Shown here in pieces: positions 3,367 to 40,616 of a stretch of 64,000 bases of DNA; the stretch's first letter is position 1, and the number at the start of each line of letters is the position of its first letter. Location of the stretch: assembly GCA_964016885.1 (NCBI GenBank), contig CAXHJY010000837.1, positions 1 to 64,000 of the forward strand, written 5' to 3'. The stretch comes from Eledone cirrhosa (lineage: Eukaryota). The notes below the pieces were generated by a model. It saw nothing but the letters and a program-made list of their open reading frames with translations. It was not told the origin of the DNA and ran no database searches. The position numbers were made by a program, and so were the translations under genes.

Positions 3367-5826
3367 GACGAAGTCTGTGGCTGGAGCAATCCTGTAGGTA
3401 GGAGGAGAGTAACATGGTGCTGGAACAGTAAGGTGGAGGAGTCAATTAAGGCCAAAAAGCAGGCTTGGAAAGCATGGCTGGATGGGGGAAGTAGAAAAGA
3501 CTATCAAGTGGCCAGGAGGGAAGCTAGGAGACAAGTGTAATTCGCAAGAAGGGAAGCAGAGGAAAGAAAGTTCAAGCATGTTCTACAACGTGAGGACCAA
3601 AAACGTGAGGTGTTCAGGATTGCTAGGCAATGTGTCAAGGAAAACCGTGATATTGTCGGGGAGAAGTGTGTACTTAATGATGATGGCGTACTTGCTGGAA
3701 GTGTCACTACGAAAGGCTTATAAATGAGGAGAATAAATGGGAGAAAGACAGTCTCCCCCACATCGACCCAATAGAGGGACCAGCAGTGTTAGTCGAAGAT
3801 AGTATAATAAGTAAGGCAATCAAAGATATGAAGACGGGTAAGGCGGCTGGGCCTTCGGAAATAGTTGCTGAGATGCTGAAAGCCTCTGGAATGGTGGGGC
3901 ACACCATGGTCATCCAGATAGTAAACCAAGTCATACAGAATGGGGTTGTTCCGAAGGACTGGCGTAGCAGCATCATCATTAACTGTTACAAGGGTAAAGG
4001 AGATGCCCTAGATAGGAGTAACTATAGAGGCATTAAATTAATCGACCAGGTCATGAAGGTCACGGAAAAAGTAATAGCGCAACTAATCAGAGAGAGAATT
4101 GATCTAGATGAAATGCAGTTCGGGTTTGTGTCAGGCAAAAGTACCACAGACGCTCTTTTCATTGTACGACAACTACAGGAGAAGTACCTAGCTAAAAGTA
4201 AACCCCTATACTTAGCTTTTGTTGACTTGAAGAAAGCCTTCGACAGAGTCCCCCGTTCCATTATCTGGTGGGCTCTTAGAAAACTAGGTGTTGACGAATG
4301 GCTTGTGAGAGCTATACAAGCCATGTATAAAGAAACAGTCAGCAAGGTTAGAATTAACAACGAATATAGTGAAGAGTTTAGTGTAAAAGTTGGTTTTCAT
4401 CAGGGCTCTGTTCTTAGCCCCCTACTATTTATTATTGCCCTTCAGGCCATAACAGTGGAGTTCAAGACCGGCTGCCCATGGGAACTCCTATACGCAGATG
4501 ATCTAACGCTCATAGCTGAATCAATGGCCGAGCTAGAGAAGAAATTCCAAACATGGAAGCACAGCCTAGAATCAAAAGGCCTTAAAATTAACCTGGCTAA
4601 GACTAAAGTTCTAGTTTGTAGGAAAGAAAATAAGGCGCCGGTCCCTTCTGGGAAATGGCCATGCTCAGTGTGTAGGAAAGGCGTAGTTAGAAACTCCATT
4701 TTATGTCCCAAATGCAAAGTATGGGTGCATAAAAGATGTAGTGGGATGACAGGTAAGCTAACTAAGAACATAGATTTTACATGTGGCCGGTGCTCTGGTG
4801 CAATAAGTGCCCACAAAATACTAGCTCTTTCAATTGCGCAGAGGGTTCTATAGAAATAGTGGACAGCTTCCGTTACCTGGGTGACAAAATCAGCAGTGGG
4901 GGAGGGTGCTTTGAAAGTACAGTAGCTAGAGTCAGAACTAGATGGAAAAAGTTCAGAGAGCTTATACCACTATTAGCCGCTAAAGGGTTCTCCCTAAAAA
5001 TGAAAGGCAGGTTGTATGATGCCTGCATACGAACAGCAATGTTGCATGGCAGTGAGACCTGGGCATTGTGTGCAGAGGATATACGCAGACTAGAGAGGAA
5101 CGAAGCTTGCATGCTCCGCTGGATGTGTAATAGTAATATATGTGAACGGCAAAGCATAAACGAACTAAGGGAAAAATTAGAAATAAGAGGGATCAGATGT
5201 TGTTTACTCGAGAGAAGGCTACGTTGGTATGGTCACGTGATGCGCATGAAAGGTGACAGCTGTATAAAAAAGTGCAGGGCAATAAAGATAGACGGTAGCC
5301 ACGGAGTAGGCAGACCCAGAAAAACCTGGGACGACCTGATAAATTCCGACCTCACACACTTACACCTCTCCAAGACAATGTCACTGGACCGAGATCTTTG
5401 ACGGTACTCAGTAATAGAGAAGACCCGCCTGGCCTAAATACAAAGTCAACCTACTACAGACAGTAGGCATCTCTAACAAAATACGCCCGTCACACCACCC
5501 CCACCCCATCCACACCGCCCCTTTCAATGTAAAGTTACGTTGGTACCACAACATCCAGTCCGAAACAAATGAGGTTGTGTAGGTGTGACGACAAAAAAAA
5601 CACACAGCCCACGCTGTAATGTGGCCGTGTAGGTAACACGGTAAAAACCTCCCAGTCCCACACTGTAAATGTGGTTGGTGTTAGGAAGGGCATCCAGCTG
5701 TAGAAAACCCGCCAGACAGTCCTATGCGAGCAAGACAACCACTCTTGCCTCAAGTGGGAAAACTCCCGGCCAAACCCATGCAAGCGTGGAACATGGACGT
5801 TAAACGATGATGGTGATGATGATGAT
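3367..5826 (+). mobile_element. RTE-clade LINE, 5'-truncated (subfamily A), with frameshifts
   Basis: ORFs 3786-4853 and 4781-5401 with RT motifs, 3' UTR and (GAT)n tail. Confidence 0.95.
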
Positions 5827-5868
5827 ATATATATATATATATATACATATATTATTTACATATATATA

Positions 5869-7681
5869 TCATCATCATCATCGTTTAACGTCCATCTTCC
5901 ATGCTTGTATGGGTTTGGACAAGAGTTTTCCCACTTGAGGCAAGAGTGATTATCTTGCTCGCATAGGACTGTCTGACAGGTTTTCTACAGTTGGATGCCC
6001 TTCCTAACACCAACCACATTTACAGTGTGGGGCTGGGAGGTTTTTACCGTGTTGCCTACACGGCTACATTACAGCGTGGACTGTGTTTTTTTGTCGTGAC
6101 ACCTACACGATCTCATTTGTTTCGGCCTGGATGGTGTGGCACCAACATAACTTTACATAGAAGGGGGCGGTGTGGATGGGGTGGGGGTGGTGGGACGGGG
6201 GTGTATTTTGTTAGAGATGCCTACTGACTGTAGTAGGTTTTACTATGTATTTAGGTAAGGCGGGTCTTCTCTATTACTGAGTACCGCCAAAGGTCTCGGT
6301 CCAGTGACATTGTCTTGGAGAGGTGTAAGTGTGTGAGGTCGGAGTTTATCAGCTCGTCCCAGGTTTTTCTAGGTCTGCCTGTTCCGTGGCTACCGTCTAT
6401 CTTTATTGCCCTGCACTTTGTTATACAGCTATCGTCTTTCATGCGCATCACGTGTCCATACCAACGTAGCCTTCTCTCGAGTAAACAACATCTGATCCCT
6501 CTTATTTCTAATTTTTCCCTTAGTTCGTTTATGTTTTGCCGTTCACATATATTACTATTACACATCCAGCGGAGCATGCAAGCTTCGTTCCTCTCTAGTC
6601 TGCGTATATCCTCTGCACACAATGCCCAGGTCTCACTGCCATGCAACATTGCTGTTCGTATGCAGGCATCATACAACCTGCCTTTCATTTTTAGGGAGAA
6701 CCCTTTAGCGGCTAATACTGGTATAAGCTCTCTGAACTTTTTCCATCCAGTTCTGACTCTAGCTACTGTACTTTCAGAGTACCCTCCCCCACTGCTGATT
6801 TTGTCACCCAGGTAACGGAAGCTGTCCACTATTTCTATAGAACCATCTGCGCAGTTGAAAGAGCTAGTATTTTGTGGGCACTTGCTGCTACTTATTGCAC
6901 CAGAGCACCGGCCACATGTGAAATCTATGTTCTTAGTTAGCTTACCTGTCATCCCACTACATCTTTTATGCACCCATACTTTGCATTTCTGACACAAAAT
7001 GGAGTTTCTACCTACGCCTTTCCTACACACTGAGCATGGCCACTTCCCGGAAGGGACCGCCGCCTTATTTTCTTTCCTACAAACTAGAACTTTGGTCTTA
7101 GCCAGGTTAATTTTAAGGCCTTTTGATTCTAGGCCGTGCTTCCATGTTTGGAATTTCTTCTCTAGCTCAGCCATTGATTCAACTATGAGTGTTAGGTCGT
7201 CTGCGTATAGGAGTTCCCATGGGCAGCCGGTCTTGAACTCCTCTGTCATAGCCTGAAGGGCAATAATAAATAGTAGGGGGCTGAGAACAGAGCCCTGATG
7301 GACGCCAACTTTTACGCTAAACTCTTCACTATATTCGTTGTTAATTCTAACCTTGGTGACTGTTTCTTTATACATGGCTTGTATAGCTCTCACAAGCCAT
7401 TCGTCGACACCTAGTTTTCTAAGAGCCCACCAGATAATGGAACGGGGGACTCTGTCGAAGGCTTTCTCCAAGTCGACAAAAGCTAAGTATAGGGGTTTAC
7501 TTTTAGCTAGGTACTTCTCCTGTAGTTGTCGTACAATGAAAAGAGCGTCTGTGGTACTTTTGCCTGACACAAACCCGAACTGCATTTCATCTAGATCAAT
7601 TCTCTCTCTGATTAGTTGCGGTATTACTTTTTCCGTGACTTTCATGACCTGGTCGATTAATTTAATGCCTCTATAGTTACT
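5869..7681 (-). mobile_element. RTE-clade LINE, 5'-truncated (subfamily A)
   Basis: ORF 6251-7645 with YADD; 3' UTR and tail. Followed at 7681-7740 by a plus-strand RTE 3' terminus. Confidence 0.95.
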
Positions 7682-7739
7682 CCAAACCCATACAAGCGTG
7701 GAACACGGACGTTAAACGTTGATGATGATGATGATGATG

Positions 7740-8672: not shown

Positions 8673-9368
8673 CTGAGGAAATTACATAATTACATTACAA
8701 AGTTAAAATCTAAGTGATGTTTGTATTATTTCTACAACAACAGCAATGACATTTTATAAACTTCATTATCAATGTTATTGTCGTTTCTTACTTTAAATCA
8801 CAGATGAAAATTTCAATTGAACTTACCCAGACTTTTTAACTTTCAAAACTGTTTTTATCCATAAGATTATAATTGTATTGTATTTAACTTTGGTCTTCCT
8901 ATACCACTTTTTAATTGAAATTAATCACATAACTCTTTCATTACCATATTTCTAATGAAATATACTGCCTATGAATTTCAATTAATTTTGAAAATAACAA
9001 AAACAATTTGGAGGCACTTAATAAAACAACTAAGATTTTCATTAGTAAGCTGATATTTGGAGCATTACTTAGCAAAAATTTATAAGATAAAGTTACAACG
9101 AAAGGTTTAAATATATATTTAAATAATTTAAAATGAGTCATTTTTATCATAAATTCAGGACAGTTTCAGGCAGTTTGAAATCAAAAGGGCTTAAAAATTA
9201 CAAAAATAAATTCTAGAGTCAATGCTTAGCTTCAGTTTCACGGCTTTTCCAAACTATAAGAATTCACAATCAGTTAGCAGATCATCCAGTTTAACCTGAA
9301 CAATGTATTCCTCCCAAACAACAATAGTGATGGAATCAGATGTAATTAAAAATTAAACAATGTCTTAC

Positions 9369-9475
9369 TCATCATCATCATCCTCTTCAGAAAATTTCTT
9401 CCGCTTTTTCTTTGCAGGTTGTTCTCTATCACCCAGGAGGTTGCTTGGACATTTGTAACTCAAGTGACCCTCCTC
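9369..9475 (-). CDS. ZCRB1: ZCRB1 coding exon 4 (rest of CCHC knuckle, Lys-rich and acidic tracts)
   Basis: Acceptor ttttaccag, [35 protein letters not shown], donor GTAAG. Completes [14 protein letters not shown]. Confidence 0.95.
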
Positions 9476-10180
9476 CTGGTAAAACAAACAAAACATGTGC
9501 CGATATTAATGTGTGTGTTTATGTATATTAGGCAGCACAAGTGTATACACTCAATTCCATATACATAACTGTCAAAGTATGTAGAGGCAGCAAATTAGAA
9601 CGTCGTACTACTTTGCATTATTCGTTCTAGCTCACTGTGTTCAAAATTCACAAGATCAACTTTGCTTTTCATCTTTTCAAGGTTGATAAAAGAAATACCA
9701 GCCCAGTCCTGGGGTCAATTCTTCCTCTATATCTCCTTCTCACTGTCACTCTCTTTCTCTCTCCATCCTTGGAATAAATCAGCTGTGTTCAGACCTGAAG
9801 AAGGATGAGTTTTGCCAGGTTTTAAAATGCACAAGACATGTATGTCACTACGATGTTCCAACAACTCTATTAGATGTTACAGATTCATACATTCAATGTT
9901 TGTAAAGAAAATCAAAAAGATAATTAAAGACATAGATCCTGAAACACAACAATAACACTAGATATAAAACACAACACACTGACAACTTTCAATCAATACA
10001 TGGTAGATATAACAACTATACATTGGTGATTTCTACTTTATATTATCATCATCCTTTTATGTCTGTTTTTTCACACTTGCATGGGTTGGATGGGTCTTTT
10101 CAAGCATACCTCCACCTATTGCATTCTTTTCTCATTCCCTCTGAGAGGGAATTTTGAAATCCGCTCTCACCACCACATCA

Positions 10181-10340
10181 TATATAGCTGATAAAGTTAA
10201 ACATAATACATTGGCAATTTCCACTTATATAGTAGACAAGGTTAAACATAATAGATTAGCAATTTCCACTTATATGGCAGACAAAGCTAAATGCAACACA
10301 CTTCATTGCAACTTCCACCTGATATATGATAGACAAAGCT
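10181..10340. repeat. Degenerate ~45 bp tandem repeat (~3.5 copies)
   Basis: Repeating tatatagtagacaaggttaaacataata...gcaatttccact. Confidence 0.75.
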
Positions 10341-10432
10341 ACAAGGCATGAAATGGCCATTTTAAATCTGGGAGAGCCCATTCTTCTCCAGGTTTCAACA
10401 TAGTCAATTTCTTCCAGAAAGCTGTTGCTTAG

Positions 10433-11682
10433 GGGGTGGTAAAGAAGGGAAGGTGAGGTGCAAAAGACAGGGAGTAAACAAAGTATCAAATTACACTTTA
10501 TTTACCAATCTTGGTCAGGGACATGCAGCAGCCACGAATCAGATGACACAATAGCTAAAAGTAAAATAAAAGGGGAATCAGTGCCGAATGAGTCTCAACA
10601 CGTTTCTTTGTGTCACTACTCCGAAAACCAACAACAAAAAAATGTCTGCTGAATATTTCAAAAATAAGTGCCAGGCTCTTCAGGAAGAACTCAATGTAAG
10701 TAATGTTCCATTTACCAGGCTATAATTATTGTGGTCCTTTCAGTGATACAAAAAAAGAATCCTGTAAATGATTTAGATGCTGCATGTCAAAAACACAATT
10801 TATAAGCTTACAAGGATACATGTGCGCCTGTAACTCAGCTTTAGTCATCGAAGCATGCAAGTCTTCATAAGGTATCTGCATGCATCTGTGTTGTATCTTC
10901 AAATTTGTGTATGTCGCGTTAGCTGGATTTATAATGTAAGTCGCCATGTCTATTGTCGTATCAAATGCATCTAAGTAATGAAAAAGCGTCCTACAAAATC
11001 GCTTAGTCACTCGGATTGTTGACTCCCACCGACGGAGGACTGTCCAATGTTATTGTCACTCCTGCTTACCGCAGGTCCTACATGAGGTTCCTCCACGGTT
11101 ATCTGTTCGTTGTCTTCGTCTGCTATCTCGCTGTGCTCTATCTTCGATCCTCTAGCTTCTCTAGCTCGTTTTCTAGTTGTTTGTGGCATTCGTAGAAGTC
11201 TGTCTAAAATGTTATTAGTAAATTTGTTGAAGTATGTCTTTCCTTTTATAATGTAATGAACTACTTTAGATGGTATTTATGTTTTCGATGTCTTGTAGCA
11301 GTTGATTGTTTGCATCTAATGTTGTATGTTCGGCTCAACATATAAATTGTGTTTTTGACATGCATCTAAAACATTTACAAAATTTTTTTTGTATCACTGA
11401 AAGGACCACAATAATTATAGCCTGGTAAATGGAACATTACTTACATTGAATTTTTCCTGAAGAACCTGGCACTTATTTTTGAAATATCCAGCAGACATTT
11501 TTTTTTGTTGTTGGTTTTCGAAGTGGTGACACAAAGAAACGTGTTGAGACTCATTCCCCTTTTAGCTATTGTGTCATCTGATTCGTGGCTGCTGCGTGTC
11601 TCTAGATTGGTAAATAAAGTGTAATTTGATACTTTGTTTACTCCCTATCTTTTGCACCTCACCTTCCCTTCTTTACCACCCC
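10433..11682 (-). other. Candidate endogenous parvovirus/densovirus VP (PLA2 plus capsid) relic with long inverted arms
   Basis: Inverted arms at 10433-10804 and 11341-11682. Each carries MFHLPGYNYCGPF...; the left arm continues PVNDLDAACQKH and the right arm has the variant FVNVLDACQKH. The minus strand continues DANNQLLQDI, MPQTTRKRAR...GQSSVGG, KRFCRTLFHYL, QIPYEDLHASMTKAELQ with frameshifts and stops. Confidence 0.65.
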
Positions 11683-11842
11683 ACAACCTGCTGTAAGACT
11701 CTGGAGATAGAAAAACATTGTCTCTCTTGGGTGGCTCGAGTAGAGTCTACAAAGTAAATGGTTATGTGTTTTCCACCACAAGAATCATGATGATTGAGAA
11801 GAAAGAAGAGAACAACAACACTAAGAAATGTCTAATACATAC

Positions 11843-11950
11843 CCCACATTCATAGCAATGACTTTTATCCTTATAAATCTTTCTTCGTATGAATTCAGGA
11901 GTGCGTCCATTGTCTTTAGCAATGTTACAAGAAAGTGTTCGACCAAACAT
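11843..11950 (-). CDS. ZCRB1: ZCRB1 coding exon 3 (end of RRM, start of CCHC knuckle)
   Basis: Acceptor ccttccgcag, MFGRTLSCNIAKDNGRTPEFIRRKIYKDKSHCYECG (108 nt), donor GTATGT. Confidence 0.96.
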
Positions 11951-12014
11951 CTGCGGAAGGAATACATTTTCAGCATTTTGGTAACTATTTTCACAGATGA
12001 AAATGATATTTAAA

Positions 12015-13691
12015 AATATGAGGAAAATGTATGAGAAGAAGATAGCCTCCCCCAGTTGGACCCTACAGAGGGACCAGTGGTACAAGTTAGTAGCAGTGTA
12101 GTAAGTAAAGCAATTAAAGACATGAAAACAGGCAAAGCAGCGGGGCCATCGGGAATAGTTGCTGAGAGGCTGAAAGCATCTGGGATGGTAGGACACACTA
12201 TAACCACTTAAATTGTTAACCAAGTAATACAAAATGGTGCTATACCCAATGACTGGCATAGCATCATCATCAACAACTGCTACAAGGACAAAGGTGATAC
12301 ACTAGACAGTGGAACTATTGTGGTATCAAACTAATGGACCAGGTCATGAAAGTTACAGAGAGAGTCATTGTACAACTGATTAGGGAACAAATTAACTTAG
12401 ATGTGATGCAGTTCAGATTTGTGCTAGGAAAAAATATCACAGATGCCAGCTTCCTTGTGAGGCAACTGCAGAAGTATTTAGCTAAAAGCAAATCATTCTA
12501 TTTTGTCGACCTAGAGAAAGCTTTTGACAGAGTTCCCCATTCTGTAATCTGGTGGGCACTTAGAAAACTAGTAGAAGAGTGGCTAGTGAGAGCAGCAGTA
12601 CAAGCCATGTACAGAGATGCTGTCAATAAGGTTAAAGTTAACAATGACTATAGTGAAGAGTTTAGTGTGCAAGTTGGGGTGCACCAAGATTCAGTCCTTA
12701 GCCCTCTCCTGTTTATTATCATCCTCCAGGCTATAACAGAAGAGTTTAAAACATGATGCCCTAGGGAATTCCTGTCTGATGATGATCTAACTCTAATAGC
12801 AGAATCTGTGACAGAATTAGAGAAAAAATTCCTGACCTGGAAGCAAAACGTCTTAAAGTCAACTTGCCAAAGACCCTAGTTCTAGTAAGTAATAATGAAA
12901 GCAAAGTCCTGATCCCTTCTGAGAAATGGCCCTGCTCAATGTGAGAGAAAGGAGTGGATAGAAATTCCATCCTCTGTCCAAATGCAAGCTATGGGTACAC
13001 AAGAGATGTAGTGGGATCTCAGGTTGGTTAGCTAAGAATGTAGGTTTTACTTGTGGTCATTGCACAGGAGCAGTAAATAACAAACACTGTTAGATGGTAG
13101 TGAGACTTGGGCATGTGTGCAAAGGATCTGCGTAGATTGGAAAGAAATGTAGCTTGAATGCTTCGATGGATATGTAATAGTAATATAAATTAAAGGAAAA
13201 GCATAACTGAACTGAGAGAGAAACCTGGCATAAGAGGGATTAGATGCAGTGTCGCAGGAGAAGAGATTGCGTTGGTATGGACATGTGTTGCATATGCTGG
13301 ATGACAGCTGTATAAAAAGATGCAGGGCGCTCAAGGTTGATGGAAGCTATGGAGTAGGAAGACTTGGGATGAAGTGATAAAAGCCGATCTTGCACAATTA
13401 CACCTCTCAAGGGCGATGACACAGGATCAAAATCTATGGCATTATGCAGTAATACAGAAAACCCACCTCATGTGCACGGGTTGAAGCATACGTCTAATAT
13501 GCACTACTCTCTCTTACAATATAACTCCAACGTTTAAACAACCCTCACCTGACAAGTGCTCCACCCTAGATCTATCGCTCTAATCCCCATGTACCTCCCC
13601 CACCCAGCCTACACTATAAAGTGGTCGAGTAGGTGCCATGACAAAAAGCACCCAGTCCACACTGTAAATGTGGTTGGCATTAGGACGAGCA
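12015..13691 (+). mobile_element. Decayed RTE LINE in ZCRB1 intron 2 (3' UTR resumes at ~14030-14163)
   Basis: ORF 12334-12756 ([22 protein letters not shown]) with multiple stops and indels. Confidence 0.9.
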
Positions 13692-15237: not shown

Positions 15238-15346
15238 CTGTATGTTATTGAGTGCTTTCACGGCCTTGTGGGCAGATTCACGTTCCAAAAACAAGATAAA
15301 AGCAACTCCCTTACTTTTGCGTTTAGAATCTTTCATAACTGTCACT
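15238..15346 (-). CDS. ZCRB1: ZCRB1 coding exon 2 (RRM, RNP1 KGVAFILF)
   Basis: Acceptor ttttctag, then [36 protein letters not shown], donor GTAT. Phase matches exon 1. Confidence 0.96.
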
Positions 15347-15628
15347 CTAGAAAAGAATATAACAAGGATTAACGAGACACAACGGAAGGGTGCGACATAT
15401 TTCAATTAACTTCAGTATGTCACTGAGTACATCTCTAAAAGATGATTGTTGTGATAAAGACTACAGAAATATGGGAGCCACCACCACTACCATCATTTTA
15501 CATTTTCTTTCCAAGCTGACATGGATTGAACGACGCATTTCAATCGAAATGAGTTCTACCTTCTTAAATGGATAGGGGGAAAAGGCATTTCTCGATTATA
15601 CGTTCTATTTTTCAACATGGTTTCTACG

Positions 15629-16327: not shown

Positions 16328-16440
16328 TTGACAACTTTTCCGTATTTATCAAATATTTTGTGAAGATCATTATTGGTTAATGAAAAAGGTAAATTACTGA
16401 CGTAAATTGTACTTTTACTCGGAGCAAGACCTCCACTCAT
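16328..16440 (-). CDS. ZCRB1: ZCRB1 (U11/U12 snRNP 31K) coding exon 1
   Basis: Translates [37 protein letters not shown](K), nearly identical to the recalled vertebrate ZCRB1 N-terminus. ATG at 16440, donor GTAAG after 16328 (phase 2). Confidence 0.96.
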
Positions 16441-18220: not shown

Positions 18221-18505
18221 CTCTAAGCGGACCAAGCCGCATCCAGGTCATGACTCCTGGGTGCACTTTTGCTGACATTTAGCCATCCGGAAATTGGAAA
18301 CTTGCAGTGTATTTAAACAGTATGGAGATTTTGTTGATAGGATCTAGCTGGAACTTCTTTCCGTTGTCTCTGCTTTCAAACTTATATTTAAACGTTTTCT
18401 TGAATTGGAAAAATAACGTTGGTAGTCATGGTAGCAGTGAGAACACTACAAACTACAGCGAACTCAGAGTCCTTAGCATGCATTAAAATAAAAACCCGCT
18501 TCCTC

Positions 18506-18860
18506 TCACATAGTATAGAGGACGTTTTTGTTCCTCCTCAACCAGATCCAGTCAAAACTCATTTTAGCTGTCTCAGATATTGCCTTAAAGGCTCTGGTCC
18601 TTGTCTTCCCAGAAACTGAGAGTTGTTTCATGAGATTGTAGGCAGAGTGGCACACAAAGCCTCTGGCTCCAGCTTCTGTGATGTGAACTTTGACTCGGAA
18701 GCTGGCTTCCCTCAGGCTATTGGCCAAACTGACATATTTTTCGGTCTTGAATATTTGTGTTTCTTTTAATCTACTTTCAATTTACGCGGTAAGTTCAACC
18801 AAAATCAGCTGTTTTGATGAACTGGAATGAAGTATGATATTCAACCTCAAACCACTTTTA
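18506..18860 (-). mobile_element. Restriction-like endonuclease C-terminus of a HERO/R2-type non-LTR element, decayed
   Basis: KQLILVELT...KTEKY...EAGARGFVCHS...SETAKMSFDWIWLRR pattern. Confidence 0.65.
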
Positions 18861-30000: not shown

Positions 30001-33000
30001 AATAATAATAATAATAATAATAATGGTTTCTTTATTGGCCACAAGGGCTAACATGAAGAAAAACATTACAGATGGCACAGAACGGTACAGGACGATAGAA
30101 AGTGGGTTTTGTGCGTGTAAAAAAGGTTATAACAAGAAGATAGAAATATCAAAAAAATTCAAACAACAACAATTCTCCAATAGGGGGGAAACTTCCGAAG
30201 GTCACTCATGGCGAAAACCACACAAAAGACCACGGCCTCCCTGACCACCAGGGCATGCGCCCTCTCTGTTTTCCACTCCTCAGTCTACAGGCGCATACTC
30301 AGAACGGGCCCGTTCACTCGGACCAGACTCGCCACTTTCACCCACCTTTCAACAAACCTACTAGAAGACAGCATTTGTCTCTCCACCCTGGAGGCACATG
30401 GCTTAGTGATTAGAGCATTGGCCTTGCAATCGAAAGGTTGTGAGTTCAATTCTCAGACCGGGTGATGTGTTGTTTCCTTGAGCAAGACACTTTAATTCAC
30501 ATTGCTCCAGTTTACTCAGCTGTAGAAATGAGATGATAGGGACTGGGGTTCCTATCATTCCACTGCAAAGTGGTTGTGGAGGTGCCACGGCAAAAAAGCA
30601 CCCAGCACTCACTGTAAATGAGGTTGGTGTTAGGAAGGGCATCCAGCTGTAGAAATCAAGCCAGAATCAGTTCCCGTCCCACCCTTGCAAGCAGGGAAAA
30701 GTGGACGTAAAATGATGATATGATGATGACCCTGATTTTCCTCTTCAAGTGAAATTTGAAAAAGTTAATCAGGGATTCGCCGAAGAGGAAAGTGTCCGTC
30801 TTCAATCCTTTCAACCATGTCCACCATACAATCTATTTCGCCATGGCCACCAGGCAGATTAAAACTGCCAGCCCTTCCTCCTTCTTGAAGGAGGACGGCG
30901 GGGCTATCTGCACAATGGACTCAGTCGATAACCGGATCCGTCCTACACGTGACAGCAAATGTTCGACATAGCTCCACAAGTCAGCAATGCTCGGACACTG
31001 AACGAGTGCGTGCACAATGGTTTCGTCGCTCTGTGCGCATCTCAGACAGGTCCGGCTGACGGCACTTCCGTGCCTGTTGAGCTATCTCTAACCGGCAACA
31101 CTCCCCGGTAGCACTGCCAAGCCAGGGATTTCTGGAAGTTGTCCATAGGTCCCGCTCTGAAAGTTCTCTTGAAGAGAGTGAACAGCTGATCGTCTTCGAC
31201 ACCCAGGTTGTCCCCGAGAACGTCGTCACTCTTCCCTTCCACTAGTCCTCTATAGAACGCCGATACTAGATACTATAGAACCACCGATGCTAGTGCCCAG
31301 CTGGTAGAAGGCTGTGAGCGCTTGGAAACATTCCAGCTTCCAAGCGCTATCCCTCGGTCTTTTCCTGATCCAGGACCTCAGCTCCATTAATGAGATGAGC
31401 TGGGGAAAAACACGTCTGGCAAACGGTGACCACACCTGTTCACCGTCAAGGAAGCGCCAGAGATGTCGCAGCCTCAGCACGTGTTTGCGCATCATCAGCC
31501 ACGGCATGCCCAGCCCTCCATGCAACGACTGTTGACAGCAGATGGATCGTCTGACCATGGAAGCACGTCCTTCCATAAAAAGCGGAAGAGGAGGCGCTCC
31601 ATTTTTGTCAGAGTTGGGCCGGGGAAAGGCACAACAGTTAGGCGGTAGCAGATGACAGATGCGATGAACACATTCGCCACAGGGACAGCTTCCTCTCGGC
31701 CCATTTCTGGCTGAGAGAGGCCACCCTGTTCGTCACCTCGCTCCAGTTTTTCTGCAGCTGGAGGTCTGGACCGAACCATACCCGAGCTATTTAACCGGTC
31801 CTTCCGTCCAGCGCCCCACGATGTTGTCGGGCGGCATGGACTTGCCTCTCCAGGTGCCGAGGTGCAAGCTCACTGACTTTTCCTGGTTTAACTTTGCTTC
31901 TGTCACTGCTTCATATTCTTTGAGAGCGCTGCCGAGCATCTGGACATGTCCGGCGCTTGACACCACAACGGTGACGTCGTTGGCATAAGCCGATATGGAT
32001 CTCCCACATCCCAGTTCACGTGGGACGTCTATCATCGCCTCCAATTTGTGCAGTAACGGCTCTAGGGCCAATACGTACAAGAGTGACGAAAGGGGACAAC
32101 CTTGACGGACCGAGCGCGTGATGCTGAACGGCTGTGACAGATAACCGTTCACCTTCATACTGAGCAGATGTCGCTGTGCATCGGAGCCATCCAACCCCTG
32201 AAAATGGGCCCGAAACCAGCTGCCTCGAGGACCGCTGCCAGGTACTGATGGTCGACCCTATCAAATGCCTTAGATTGATCTAAGTTGATCAGGCCCCACC
32301 CTTGCCAGGTTCGTTAACCACCCTCTCTATGATGTATCGCATGAGGTGGAGGTTGTCATGGATGGATCTGTCTGGAATAGCATATGTCTGTGCCTCTCCC
32401 ACCAGATCTCTGACGACAAGCGCCAATCTCGTTGCTAACACCTTGGCCAAAATCTTGAAATGTGTTTAACAGTGTTATGGGCCTGAAGTTGTCTATAACG
32501 TCCCCTTTGTTCGGGTCTTTTCTCAACAGCGCCACCACTCCCCAGCTCACAAAACTGGGAATGTTCCTGTTCTGCTGCCAGTTGCAGTAGACGTCTGCCA
32601 AGAGGTCACCGAACAATTCTGGCATGTACGCATAAAGCTCGTAGGGCAGACCATCCAAACCTGGTGATTTACCCCTCAGGCAGGCAGACATTGCTTCTCG
32701 TATTTCACCTGCTGTTATCGGCTTTTCGCAATACTGCACTGCGGTCGTCGAGAGCTGCGGCAGTCGCTCGAGGTATGCACTGAAGTTCATACTCCAATCT
32801 AGCCGGCCGCCGCTCCCAAACTGTTGAGCAAAGTGCTGCTGAAAAGCCTCACACATCTGCTTGGGTTCGAGTAACATGTGCTTGTTTTGGTCAGGCAAGA
32901 ATTGAATTGTGGCTTTGTTGACACATTGTGCCTCCACTACCCAGGCCCATTGGACAGCTTTTGTCCCTTCTTGTCTCAGAGCACGTGCTCTAGCTCTGAC

Positions 33001-36000
33001 AACGCAGCCTTTGTATTAAAGAATTCCAATCTTGCTGCAAGCACGTCGGTTGTGATGCCTGTCCTAAACGCCTCTTCTAGCTTTCTAACTAGCTCTCCCT
33101 CTACTCTATTTTCCTCTATCTTTACTCCTTTGCTAAACCTTATTGATTCTACTCTAATTGCCCTTTTCAGGGTAAACCACCACTTGTTGACGATCGCACC
33201 CGTCAATACACGCTTATCTAATTCGCTTATCCGGTTTCTGTAAGCTTTGCGCGCTGTGAAAGACGCGTTCAGCTTCCAGTAACCGGGTCCTTGCCTATGA
33301 AGTCTATCTAAGTCGACTTCACAGATCACAAATTTGTGGTCCGAGTAGTAGACTACTTTAAATTGTGGACAACCTATGCTAGCCTTATCTGTTTCCCTAC
33401 ACAATACCCTATCTAGATACAATCTGGATGATCCGATGCGGTTTGCCCATCTCCACATTGGCACATTCGGATAATCCAGTATATCTGTCAGACAGTTGAA
33501 ACGTCTGAGCAGGTTGGTGAGGCTTTTACATCCTCTTCCCTTATTTACTAGCCCCACATAATCCCAGTGTGCATCTAGGATACCGTTCCAGTCACCCACT
33601 AAGACTAAAGAGCGGGATGTTCCAAGAAAGGTCTCTAGACATCTGAAGAAATCTGCTGTCCTGCCCCTATTGGGGCGTAGACGGCTACTAGTCTGAAAGC
33701 ATTGCCTTCACAACTTGTCATGTCCAGTACCACCAACTTACCTTCTGGGTCCAGGAAGATGGCCCGTATGGCGAGATCCAAGCCTCTCCAAAAAAGCACA
33801 GCAACTCCACTCCCTGCTCCTGAATGGCTGGGAGATGCGTATACAACCTAGCCGCCGAAGATCAGTGCAAAGTTTCGTGCTTCGGAGATTCTGGTCTCGC
33901 TGATGGTCACCACATCTATGTTTAGTGACCTGAGATCGTTAAGTAGGTGGCCCTGCTTCCAAGATGACCCCAGGCCACGTACATTTATACTGCCTATTCT
34001 AAGTAAGGCCATGTTGGGTAAGGAATGGAGTAAGTGAGAAGGGATCACCTACCCTGATCGTGTGGGAAAGGGACAGTTGAACCGTCCCTTTGGCTGGTCA
34101 TGGCTGTCTCAGAGAAGATGTCGGTGTATATCCTCTTGGTAACCGATCCTCTGAAGTCTCCAACTGCATTGGGGAATTTTTATTTTAAATGTTTATAATG
34201 TTCTATTTTAATTTTAATAATGTTTATATTTTTCGGGAAAGTTCTTGGTGTTGGTGGGGTGTAGTAATTTTTGTCCTTAATGTCTGTGTGCCTCTTTATA
34301 TATTCTAAGAGTTCTTTATTTGCCAAGTTTATGGCTGTGTAATGTTTTTTGGGGGGTTTGGTTTTGTTGCTGTTTTCTTGTTGCTGCTGTTGGGTATGTT
34401 TGTCTTGTGTTCGCGATGTTGATGTTTATGGTGATGGTGTGGTGGTTGTTGGTGGTGGTGGTGGTGTGGTGGTTGTTGGTGGTGTGGTGGTTGTTGGTGG
34501 TGATGGGGGTGATGGGGGTGGCGTTGCTGTGAGTCACCTTGCAGCCTTTACTACTTTTTGTTTGCCTTCGCTTTTGGAGGGTGAAGCTAAGGGGATTTTT
34601 GATTTGTTTTTTGTGGCAGACCGTTTGCCACTTCACTCCCGCCTCAGACTCCATGTCAGATTCCATGGCGTCTCGGAGGGGTATGTGCTCCATGGCTGTT
34701 GGTGGTGGTAGTGGAGCCCTCTCCGGCGATTTTGTTGCTGGTGCAGTTACTGCAAATGTAGCTACTGCTGTTGCCGCCACTGCTGCTGCTGTTTTAGTTG
34801 TCCGTGGCCTTGGTATGGGTGCCACGGACGTTGCCCTCCTACTCACCGTGGAAGGGTCTTCTGCCTTTGTTGCCTGCCCTGCTCTTGGTAGCAGTGGACA
34901 AGGCATTGGAAGGAGGGGGGGGGGGGGCCTTCACTGTTTTCTGCAGGCAAAAGGCCCTGAGGTGACCCTTTGACCCACAGAGATAACATTTTGGGCGTCT
35001 TCCTTCCACGCTTATATGGATTTGGAGTCCTTCCTTGAGGTCTATGATATCGGGGATAGCCTCAATACACTCCTGGTCAGTTTGTATAAGCATTTGCATG
35101 CCTATACCTGACCAGTTCTCTCTCCCTATTTTCTCTACTTGCAGCATGGTTGTCCTGTCCTCGATTCCAGCAAGGACAGACACGGCCAGCCAAGGTATGG
35201 GCACGTTGGGTGGGACCTGGGTCACTTTGACCCTCACAATTTTCTGCCCACAGTAGGAGGGCACCAAGACTATCTCCTCACTCTTTAGGGTTTCCAAAGA
35301 GTGAGACTTCGCCTCCTGGGGGTGGCAAAAGGTACGTCTATTGTGGCATAATTTCTGCCTCGGGTGATGTGGGTTTTGCGCGCCCAGACACATGCCAATG
35401 CCTTTTGGATTTGAGCCTCTGTGGCTCTCTCCACCTGATGTGATATTTTACTTTGAGTATGGTAAGTCTCCGTCCGTAACTGCTGGTCCTTAAAAACTGG
35501 GTGGAGGTGTCAGGGAAACTCGATTGGCATTTCTTGTCACCATGGCCCTTGCAACTGCCATCTCCTCCTCCGTGACTAACACTGTTTCGATATTTCAGGC
35601 CACACATGCAAAAGAAGTGGCCCCTTTTTCAGCAGCACCACTATTGCTGCCGCTACTGGTCTTACTGGTGGTGCTGAGATGGCTGTTACTGGTATTGATG
35701 TCATTGTTGTTGTTTTCGTTGGTACTGTTGTTGCTGTTGTTTCCGTTGATATTGTTGTTGTTGTTACTGTTATTGTGGCTGTTGTTATTGTCATTGTCTT
35801 TCTCGACCTTACTGCTGTTATTTTTGTTGTTGCTGTTATTGATGGTGTTGTTGTTGGTGTTATTGTTGGTGTTGTTTGTGTTAGAAATATTTGGTAATTT
35901 TAAATCTGTAACAATATCATTAAAAATGATATTGTTCCTCTTTTCCTTCCTAATATTTTCTTTTATATTTACCTTCGGTAGAATGCTGCCTTGTTAACAT

Positions 36001-38592: not shown

Positions 38593-39700
38593 TATTAAAA
38601 TAACAGATTAAAGTTTAAGCAAAGAATCGCTGCTTTCACCCTTACTTTGAGGCTTTCAAGTCTATCTAAAAACGAGCATATTTTCACCGACCATTCCACA
38701 TATTAAAATGAAGCTCTTGCTCGGAGTGGATTTGTTGATAAGGTAGCATATACTAAGTATGAGCATCTACCAAGGAAAAATAGATCATGGCGCATTATAT
38801 GGTATAAGGCGGTGGATTGGCAGTATCAGTGGAGGGTCGTACGCCATGCTTTCCAGCATAGTTACGTCCCTTTACGATCTGAGTTCAAATCCCGCCGAGG
38901 TTGACTTTGCCTTTCATCCTTACGAGGTCGATAAAATAAAGTACCAGTAATGCACTGAGTAATTGCTGGCCTTGTGCCCAAAGTAGAAACAATTATATGG
39001 TATAACCCACCATATAATATGGAGGTGGCCACACCATTAGCTAAGATCTTTCTCTCCCTTATTATGAAGCATTTCACCTCAGCACATAAATATAATAAAA
39101 TTTTAAATAGAAATAACATTAACATATCTTATTCTACGACTCCTAAGTTTGCACATAACATCACTGCTTCAAATTTAGCTAAATTACCTAGCCGTAGGAA
39201 CACGTGCAACCCTGTAGCTAGTACTAACTGTAATTGTAGGAATTGGGTTGACTGCCCTCTATCCGGGAAATGCCTCTCCAGTAACATTGTCTACAAATGT
39301 AAGGTCGAAACACCCATATCTAGTAGGGCCTACATAGGGTTAACCGCCAATAGATTCAAGCAGCGTCTTTACATGCACACCCATTCTTTTCTTAACCCTT
39401 TAAGAAGGAATATGACGTCACTTTCAGTTTATATCTGGAGTCTAAAAGACAACCACACCCAATATATGGGTTACACTGGGAGATCCTAGCTAAAGCTAGA
39501 TCGTATAACGGTAATAAAAGACCATGCGATCTTTGCGCCGCTGAAGCCCTGGAAATACTCTACGCCAATGACCACATCTTAAATAAAAAATCTGAGGCGA
39601 TTTCGGCTTGTAAACACAAATTGCATAAATCTTTCCTGTATTACAGCCCCACATTATACCCTAACAGATACTACGAACAATACGCGGATAATTTACGTCT
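38593..39700 (+). mobile_element. Penelope-like element 3' fragment (GIY-YIG endonuclease) with a short terminal piece at its 5' junction
   Basis: IIWYNPPY, CNCR...CPLSGKC, IVYKC...YIGLT...FKQRLYMH, CDLC. 38593-38643 matches 3162-3212. Confidence 0.9.
38808..38991 (+). mobile_element. tRNA-derived SINE, family 2, nested in Penelope
   Basis: Box B GAGTTCAAATCC; 14 bp TSD ATTATATGGTATAA. Removing it restores RIIWYNPPY. Confidence 0.92.
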
Positions 39701-39841
39701 TGATGTGGTAGCTAAATATATTCTATATTATTTTATGTTTATACCATTACTTATTTGTGTAGGTAAGTATACCATACCTGTATGTTTTCTGGAGGTACGT
39801 ATATATGCTTGTATTTGTTATAGGTGTATATATTATATATA

Positions 39842-40616
39842 TTAGCAGAAAAACCACGCTACGGATGGTTTTCTGCTAGCATGTGTAGTGTGTATATTGA
39901 TATTATACACAAATATATATGCATGTAAATATGATACATCAAATAAAATCCTAATTGACAATATACACAGAAATTCAATAAAGTCTATGTTACACAGTCT
40001 TCCGTAATCAGTAATCCATGATATATAAAAAAAAGACGATATTATATATAAACTTATGGGATCGATAAAATAAAATACCAGTAATACACTGGGTAATTAC
40101 TGGCCTTGTGCCAAAAGTAGAAACAATTATATATAAACTACATTAGGAGAAAATTAGTGACGGAAATATATGCGATTATAAGTGTTATAATATAACGGCC
40201 ACTAGCCGGAAGTGTTGACATTTGATAATTTTAAAGAAGTGAATTTAAAGATCTTTAAATAAGCTATAAAATATATTTAATCAACAGCCACGAAATTTAG
40301 CACAAATTATGTAATATTCATTCATTATTTATTCAAAGTAATAGGCCGTGGATTGGCAGTATCGGTAGAGAGTCGGACACCATGCTTTGACGCATAGAGT
40401 TACGTCCCTTAATGAGTTCAAATCCCGCCGAGGTTAACTTTTCCTTTCATCCTTACGGGGTCGATAAAATAAAGTACCAGTAATACACTGGTTAATTGCT
40501 GGCCTTGTGCCAAAAGTAGAAACAATTATTTATTCAAAGTAATCCAACTTATTTTACAAACGGAGTAAAAAAATATATTCTGGACGCAGTCCCGCACTCC
40601 TTTCTTATAGTTAAGA
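39842..40616 (-). mobile_element. Non-autonomous Helitron-like element with two nested SINEs
   Basis: A|TC ... hairpin-CTAA|T. Colinear with 16706-17182 apart from the SINE inserts. Confidence 0.75.
40343..40524 (+). mobile_element. tRNA-derived SINE, family 2
   Basis: 19 bp TSD ATTATTTATTCAAAGTAAT. A 5'-truncated copy at ~40055-40125 has TSD ATTATATATAAACT. Confidence 0.92.

Follow-up and report, generated by a model that had tools for sequence, protein, structure and literature searches.

A decayed fold-back fragment of a parvoviral VP1 gene in an intron of Eledone cirrhosa

The DNA analysed here is a stretch of 64,000 nt from Eledone cirrhosa (assembly GCA_964016885.1, contig CAXHJY010000837.1, positions 1 to 64,000 of the forward strand), referred to below as the window. 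Four coding exons of a gene with RRM and zinc-knuckle domains were found on its minus strand, and one intron of this gene holds a fold-back of about 1.25 kb at 10433-11682, in which two inverted arms flank a unique loop of 536 bp. The first-pass annotation had placed the element in an intron of ZCRB1; the exons and their RRM_1 matches bear out a GT-AG intron of an RRM and zinc-knuckle gene, which is probably ZCRB1 or a ZCRB1-like gene. The features are as follows.

9370..9475, minus strand: host coding exon following the intron, with the second half of the zinc knuckle (lower end approximate)
9476..11842, minus strand: GT-AG host intron after the third coding exon found; the element lies 160 nt from the donor
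10433..10804, plus strand: left arm (372 bp), an inverted copy of the upstream 270 nt and the first ~34 VP1 codons (PLA2 region)
10433..10702, plus strand: outer 270 nt, mirrored at 11438-11682; CpG-poor
10703..10799, plus strand: second PLA2 copy, in the left arm, with the same A-run frame loss and the same catalytic-pair change as the right arm; a stop follows directly
10797..10812, no strand: fold-back junction between 10804 and 10805, overlapped by an 8-bp palindrome (10803-10810); crossed by an X1 contig
10805..11340, minus strand: unique loop (536 bp) with the remaining VP1-unique region, a basic/acidic linker and the first capsid strands
10807..11013, minus strand: jelly-roll capsid start, by sequence, sharing 36 of 65 positions with P0001 (residues 165-229); cut off by the fold-back junction
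11052..11328, minus strand: VP1-unique helices and basic segment in two frame pieces, 11328-11272 (weak) and 11270-11052 (E 5e-10, 14-relative profile)
11328..11437, minus strand: VP1 start and PLA2 remnant of the right arm, out of frame at an A-run near 11385-11390; catalytic pair not intact
11341..11682, minus strand: right arm (342 bp), continuous with the loop
11843..11950, minus strand: host coding exon with the RRM end and the first half of the zinc knuckle
15238..15347, minus strand: host coding exon 2 (RRM_1 E 2.5e-7; ends approximate)
16328..16440, minus strand: first host coding exon (RRM_1 E 3.1e-6; ends approximate)

High-copy host repeat fragments lie in the same intron at about 9600-9850, 10050-10110 and 10360-10420, the last of which ends beside the left end of the element with no continuation on the right. 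A 45-bp minisatellite of 2.5 copies (TRF; 10181-10291) has single-copy depth and lies 140 nt to the left of the element, and an Rfam search over 9000-12500 gave no match. The window is rich in TA microsatellites and RTE LINEs, as is usual in octopus genomes. Elsewhere in it, a 3.7-kb near-palindrome (4015-7683, 94.5%) consists of two RTE-like LINE pieces that face opposite ways; its identity resembles that of other copies of the family, so two independent insertions are possible. The stretches at about 30800-35450 and 38950-39850 hold a decayed LINE, with matches to reverse transcriptase, endonuclease and zf-RVT and a zinc-knuckle frame upstream, and, past it, a frame that had no Pfam match and presumably resembles Penelope-type elements.

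Local alignment of 10433-10804 with 11341-11682 gave 328 identical columns out of 374, with 34 gap columns (E 7e-135). The arms of 372 and 342 bp agree with the earlier description of a 1.25-kb unit with inverted arms of ~372 and ~342 bp, and six-frame translation recovered both the ATG assigned to each arm (10703 plus, 11437 minus) and every peptide quoted in the first-pass annotation. Aligned globally, the arms differ over 340 aligned columns by 12 substitutions (11 transitions and 1 transversion; K2P 0.0365) and 6 indel events, 5 of which are bases absent from the right arm; non-triplet indels number 4 over 2 x 340 arm columns. The symmetry stops flush at the ends of the arms, and inverted similarity in the flanks is at chance level (80 of 300 shuffles score as high). 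There was no target-site duplication, the best direct repeat being a 4-mer at shifted ends, and no inverted repeat of at least 14 nt within either element end; the ends could have lost sequence by trimming, or could be something other than termini. The flush arm ends are G-rich. An imperfect 22-nt tandem repeat occupies 11642-11684 at the element end, and since it overruns the right arm by 2 nt, the true right end may sit slightly outside 11682. No second copy of the element was found within the 64-kb window.

Read on the minus strand, the element carries a parvoviral VP1 gene broken by frame into at least five pieces, which run from a PLA2 domain through a linker to the start of the jelly roll. 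A profile of 14 natural relatives matched it in five colinear pieces from 11434 to the junction, with changing frames and with two of the pieces weak; the left arm repeats the first two, and the PLA2 pieces of the two arms scored E 5e-8 and 1e-7. The PLA2-like Pfam family PF08398 matched 10703-10771 at E 6.4e-5 (23.6 bits, just below the cut-off of 23.9) and 10704-10802 at E 0.02. Judged from these matches, the PLA2 domain proposed earlier is present as a remnant, with a catalytic pair that is broken in both arms: the residue following the catalytic His is altered in each, versus 39 of 39 motif-bearing relatives that keep it (105 proteins examined). Both arms lose frame at the same A-run.

For the capsid part, the loop frame at 10726-11049 (minus) had one protein match, the Octopus vulgaris 'capsid' CAI9722213.1 (P0001; E 5.9e-15), to whose residues 165-229 the stretch 10807-11007 (minus) is identical at 36 of 65 positions. 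P0001 adds a weak sixth piece, in which residues 145-161 align with 11062-11012 in another frame (9/17 identical). The Gly/Ser patch described in the first-pass annotation is present as a peptide and, because these residues align elsewhere, is probably partly out of frame. The fold-back junction cuts the VP1 gene at about residue 229 of the 536 of P0001 (~43% of its length); an extension of the capsid match by BLAST beyond 10804/5 was rejected, as it needs a gap and runs across the reversed arm. Coding decay comprises at least four frame changes, stops and the truncation, with 3-4 frame changes in the loop alone. By its sequence the capsid piece falls within the jelly-roll capsids, the fold being predicted from the model of P0001 and not from one of the element itself. 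We regard a parvoviral origin of the element as near certain, and the earlier reading of an integrated, decayed parvoviral VP gene holds in the light of the PLA2 and capsid homology, the frameshifts and the intronic location; in the profile check for PLA2 and parvovirus capsid, PF08398 fell just below its cut-off and the capsid homology came through P0001. Weak Pfam matches to RabGAP-TBC and phytochelatin synthase, and a VP1_protrusion match at 18404-18616 (E 0.009), were judged to be due to chance.

To look for other viral genes, 167 of about 415 complex open frames of at least 50 aa in the window were scanned with Pfam; the selection left aside those lying in evident LINE copies and short ones at a distance. 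No match to NS1 (HUH nuclease, SF3 helicase) was found in the 167 scanned frames, from which decayed copies could escape; the element itself is too short to contain NS1, and the earlier remark that no NS1 is visible agrees with this. Polinton-type Pfam families likewise had no match among these frames. The first-pass annotation had allowed for a Polinton or adintovirus PLA2X gene; this reading fails because a parvoviral capsid follows the PLA2 and is colinear with it. A PLA2 motif alone is not diagnostic, since three unrelated viral contigs carry one: a profile scan found three IMG/VR loci that share the PLA2 motif only, two on RNA-virus-like contigs and one on a large-DNA-virus-like contig, and these were set aside as relatives. 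By reading, L001 (657-1778) and L002 (2796-5246) lie on RNA-virus-like contigs with a polymerase-like frame upstream and have capsid-like frames with a PLA2-like motif near the N-terminus, while L003 (2-997) is a frame resembling a large-DNA-virus major capsid with a C-terminal PLA2-like extension, adjoining a second capsid-like gene that has no such extension.

With P0001 as query, 83 matches at E <=0.001 were found among 1.84 billion representatives, and among 20 relatives looked up, a Lamellibrachia satsuma protein was the only named one. Seven relatives (P0006, P0009, P0024, P0031, P0045, P0054 and P0075) lie on contigs of ~3.6-4.4 kb, which is the size of a parvovirus genome; others lie on long contigs (177 Mb in O. 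vulgaris, 218 kb in Lamellibrachia satsuma, and several of 0.1-1.1 Mb). Among the O. vulgaris records CAI9722210-15 (P0001-P0005, P0007), five near-identical capsid entries with consecutive accession numbers sit on a single chromosome of 177 Mb, an arrangement that suggests a recent tandem integration by the same lineage of virus; two of them, P0001 and P0005, hold a full frame of 536 aa. The cluster of P0008 likewise has 6 such members on a contig of 1.1 Mb. Like the element, P0001 and its neighbours CAI9722210, -12, -14 and -15 have an N-terminal PLA2 and the linker motifs, besides the identity at the capsid start, and are chromosomal; they differ in being five near-identical members on one chromosome, whereas the element is single, truncated, frameshifted and folded back. 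Searches for usable close-relative genomes found none among viral contigs (with the element piece, profiles A3 and A4, P0009 and P0031 as queries) or among metagenome contigs (with P0006).

In P0001, the PF08398 PLA2 domain scores E 4.5e-13 and IHHNV_capsid matches weakly (E 0.003); by sequence, P0001 matches the AAV VP1 PLA2 and the PmMDV and PstDNV capsids in the PDB. Its structure model (pLDDT 68, pTM 0.56) had PstDNV 3n7x (E 1.5e-9) and the Syngnathus chapparvovirus 9nek (E 3.3e-9) as its top two Foldseek matches in the PDB, and its top matches in the viral library were unclassified Parvoviridae from birds. The VIA comparison gave a Z of 16.5 with the chapparvovirus capsid (rmsd 4.5, 268 aligned), tied in Z with AAV2 and PARV4; because of this tie the model fixes the family, not the subfamily, and any closer affinity is drawn from sequence. 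A profile of the seven closest relatives matched only three solved structures, PmMDV 6wh3 (1.4e-10), chapparvovirus 9nek (7.4e-7) and PstDNV 3n7x (1.6e-4), two of these matches covering mostly residues just past the truncation of the element; it matched no densovirus capsid of the Densovirinae type among solved structures. Denso_VP4 had no match in P0001 or in 12 relatives, and in the first look-alike cluster of the Atlas it was present on 25% of members. A tree of the 67-residue capsid piece and 18 relatives (6 of the 24 chosen were dropped for having no match to the piece) was largely unresolved, with 2 of 16 branches starred, and was not used for placement.

In sequence, the capsid core comes nearest to capsids of the metallo-, chapha- and penstyl- types and not to those of Densovirinae, and the label 'densovirus' in the first-pass annotation is not supported. 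PmMDV and IHHNV/PstDNV lack a PLA2, as stated in PMC11357303, and a VP-borne PLA2 is described as limited to Parvovirinae and Densovirinae in PMC13426907. The element lineage shares its core by sequence with the PmMDV, Syngnathus scovelli chapparvovirus and Penaeus stylirostris densovirus capsids and differs from PmMDV and PstDNV in having a PLA2: PF08398 stands at the VP N-terminus in five relatives (P0001, P0006, P0008, P0014 and P0025), whereas capsids of Metallovirinae, Hamavirinae and Penbrevirinae are reported to go without a VP-borne PLA2. The lineage of P0001 and the element, with a VP1 PLA2 joined to a core like that of the PLA2-less subfamilies by sequence, fits neither published description of PLA2 distribution.

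The outer 270 nt may stem from a non-coding end of the viral genome, from the tail of a viral gene lying upstream or from the host. It holds 4 CpG versus 10.4 expected, whereas the loop holds 21 versus 21.6 expected; at a CpG ratio of 0.33, the host intron is similar to the outer 270 nt and unlike the loop. No Pfam match at E 0.01 and no Rfam match was found in it. An origin as an NS1 tail is unsupported, as the open frames are within chance (129/1000 and 147/1000 shuffles), and the outward-facing AATAAA at 10502/11613 is, by estimate, also within chance for the base composition. A 27-codon frame (10642-10725 plus, 11415-11498 minus) overlaps the VP1 start, has an A-rich start context and is open in both arms, and a donor-like GTAAGT lies just upstream of the VP1 ATG; this could mark a leader exon or the last part of a gene lying upstream.

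The copy-number check proposed in the first-pass annotation was made by read depth, at 82% likeness. The reads comprised three runs of one sample, holding 85-90% of the window's words, and three reduced-representation runs from other samples under the same species label. In X1 the loop has a depth of 6.05, equal to that of the unique flanks (5-8), versus 10^2-10^4 for the host repeats of the intron, and the element is single-copy. Three X1 contigs, at 10073-10462, 10727-11413 and 11653-12000, span the left end, the fold-back junction and the right end respectively and show 0 differences; as X1 may be the sample from which the window was assembled, they are not independent. The element is joined to host chromosomal DNA, lying in a GT-AG intron with X1 contigs over both of its ends. 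In X4, X5 and X6, which come from another study, a few reads each fall in bins 10725-10898 (about 2, 5 and 2 reads, estimated from bin depths); five molecules of X5 begin at 10857, a GCATGC site, and the X4-X6 reads (10797-10857) fit ends at position 10797, an AATT site that lies ~8 nt beyond the fold-back junction. The inner part was thus found in three of three other samples, or four of four with X1, and the junction weakly, with the outer junctions covered in X1 only. The element is inherited and common to several individuals, the other samples covering its inner segment and not the insertion site. None of the 15 joints (of 54) and 8 pieces (of 7364) that were viewed skips the element.

At a rate of 0.0036 substitutions per site per My for O. 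bimaculoides, as quoted second-hand in PMC13282606, the divergence of the arms corresponds to 5.1 My (2.5-8.6 by Poisson limits), provided that the arms were identical at insertion, that no gene conversion occurred and that the rate of another species applies. The arm indel rate predicts ~3 frame changes in the loop, where 3-4 are seen, and because of this match the decay looks neutral and uniform in age. A near-perfect long stem of ~340 bp is predicted for the pre-mRNA strand (-645.6 kcal/mol, a value that stands without a shuffle control at such length). Mismatches in the stem comprise 7 G-U and 4 A-C (p 0.55), and selection for stem pairing was not detected by this comparison. The element likely has no function today.

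We consider it probable, with considerable room for doubt, that the fold-back VP1 fragment is a defective snap-back piece of a viral genome that break repair brought into the germline ~5 My ago and that has decayed since without function. A parvovirus of an unclassified marine-invertebrate lineage would have replicated in germline cells, and a piece of ~880 nt, made up of 270 nt upstream and the first ~630 nt of VP1, would have been joined to, or copied back along, the opposite strand; a partial genome strand treated in either way would account for a flush-ended stem with an unequal loop. The product would have a flush-ended stem of 372 bp and a loop of 536 nt and would resemble the asymmetric snap-back genomes of AAV. 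Its duplex form may then have been taken up where a double-strand break had opened the intron, with no transposase or integrase involved, which would explain the missing target-site duplication, and the two arms would have drifted apart after capture. The host would tolerate the element, in spite of the predicted hairpin in its pre-mRNA, because the element leaves the transcript with the intron at splicing. Among AAV subgenomes, asymmetric snap-back forms whose loop is single-stranded have been described as one class, and they keep an ITR (PMC8235507); AAV snap-back genomes are attributed to end-joining of broken genomes after DNA breaks (PMC9463555). The element matches this class in geometry, with self-complementary arms and a loop formed from one partial genome with strands of unequal length, and differs in that the AAV forms are packaged particles keeping the ITR, whereas the element is chromosomal and decayed, with no ITR hairpin seen. 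Several observations count against a ready-made snap-back: no hairpin telomere is visible at the element ends, the outer 270 nt is CpG-poor like the host intron and unlike the loop, and the two arms have the catalytic-pair change and the A-run frame loss in common.

These observations leave some place, if a doubtful one, for a different order of events, in which a linear VP fragment integrated first and the fold-back arose later on the chromosome by fork stalling and template switching, so that the outer 270 nt may be host intron. The CpG content of that segment, its lack of Pfam (E 0.01) and Rfam matches and its longest open frame, which is within chance (129/1000 shuffles), all agree with this. 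So do the catalytic-pair change common to both arms, at a residue kept in 39 of 39 relatives, and the loss of frame of both arms at one A-run, which fit damage before duplication or gene conversion. On the other hand, A-runs slip repeatedly and the run length differs between the arms; the density of frame breaks in the loop matches the arm indel rate, with no sign of a long decay before duplication; the symmetry stops flush, with no trace in the flanks; and the 27-codon frame over the VP1 start is open in both arms, as in compact viral genomes. That the element was instead kept as a hairpin-RNA locus, whose ~340-bp viral dsRNA from host transcription feeds small-RNA or editing pathways against the virus, is very unlikely in our estimation. 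The near-perfect predicted stem (-645.6 kcal/mol, without a shuffle control), the presence of the inner part in 4/4 samples and the relatives with open reading frames in O. vulgaris, through which the lineage may still circulate, speak for it, but any intronic inverted repeat folds likewise, drift fixation accounts for the presence in several samples, and the 6 indels and 12 substitutions between the arms show no significant bias towards keeping pairs (7 G-U, 4 A-C, p 0.55).

Long terminal inverted repeats with flush, G-rich ends are also what a non-autonomous DNA transposon of MITE, MULE or Foldback type would present, had its terminal repeats taken up a viral fragment; the single-copy depth at 82% likeness, the one copy in the window, the missing target-site duplication and the VP1 start held within the arms themselves largely refute this already and make it highly improbable. 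Almost no weight is given to an assembly artefact, a contaminating virus or a Polinton/adintovirus PLA2X gene in place of a parvovirus. PLA2-like motifs do occur in unrelated viruses, as in the three IMG/VR loci by reading, but here a parvoviral capsid follows the PLA2; contigs bridge three junctions and other samples hold the inner part, and with 12 substitutions and 6 indels between its arms the element is not a read fold-back chimera.

Host genomes commonly contain endogenous parvoviral elements, and cephalopod examples are already on record, which makes the basic finding an ordinary one; the new parts are the fold-back form and the unclassified lineage, cephalopod parvoviral sequences being known since 2016. 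The available text of Francois et al. 2016 (PMC5013282) reports parvoviral sequences in O. bimaculoides (genomic NS with an adjacent transposable element), an O. vulgaris VP transcript (JR446908) and further sequences from Sepia, Euprymna and Lamellibrachia, with the mollusc sequences branching outside known genera. These sequences are, like the element, related to parvoviruses, and may belong to the same lineage; they differ in being mostly NS fragments, with no fold-back form described in that text. This paper was the only directly relevant one found in the octopus and cephalopod parvovirus literature, in a search that lay largely outside subscription papers; a narrow search for endogenous snap-back elements found none, and the main text of a bioRxiv invertebrate-virome preprint, as far as available, had 0 mentions of parvovirus.

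The fold-back provides an internal clock, as the LTRs of retroelements do, which gives about 5 My (2.5-8.6) if the arms began identical, and the element would preserve a genome shape so far described from AAV preparations. Together with its 83 database relatives it outlines a mostly unnamed lineage spread over genome-sized contigs and octopus and tubeworm chromosomes, and the pairing of a PLA2 with a core that is by sequence nearest to PLA2-less subfamilies runs against the published limit of VP-borne PLA2 to two subfamilies. The furthest-reaching proposal, in which a fixed snap-back fossil of a mollusc/annelid parvovirus lineage (VP1 PLA2 with a metallo/hama-type core) yields, from the intron of a housekeeping gene, a constitutive ~340-bp dsRNA as a source of antiviral small RNA in octopus, is one that we think very unlikely to hold. 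The locus is nevertheless suited to testing the small-RNA output or the editing of a viral hairpin in a cephalopod intron.
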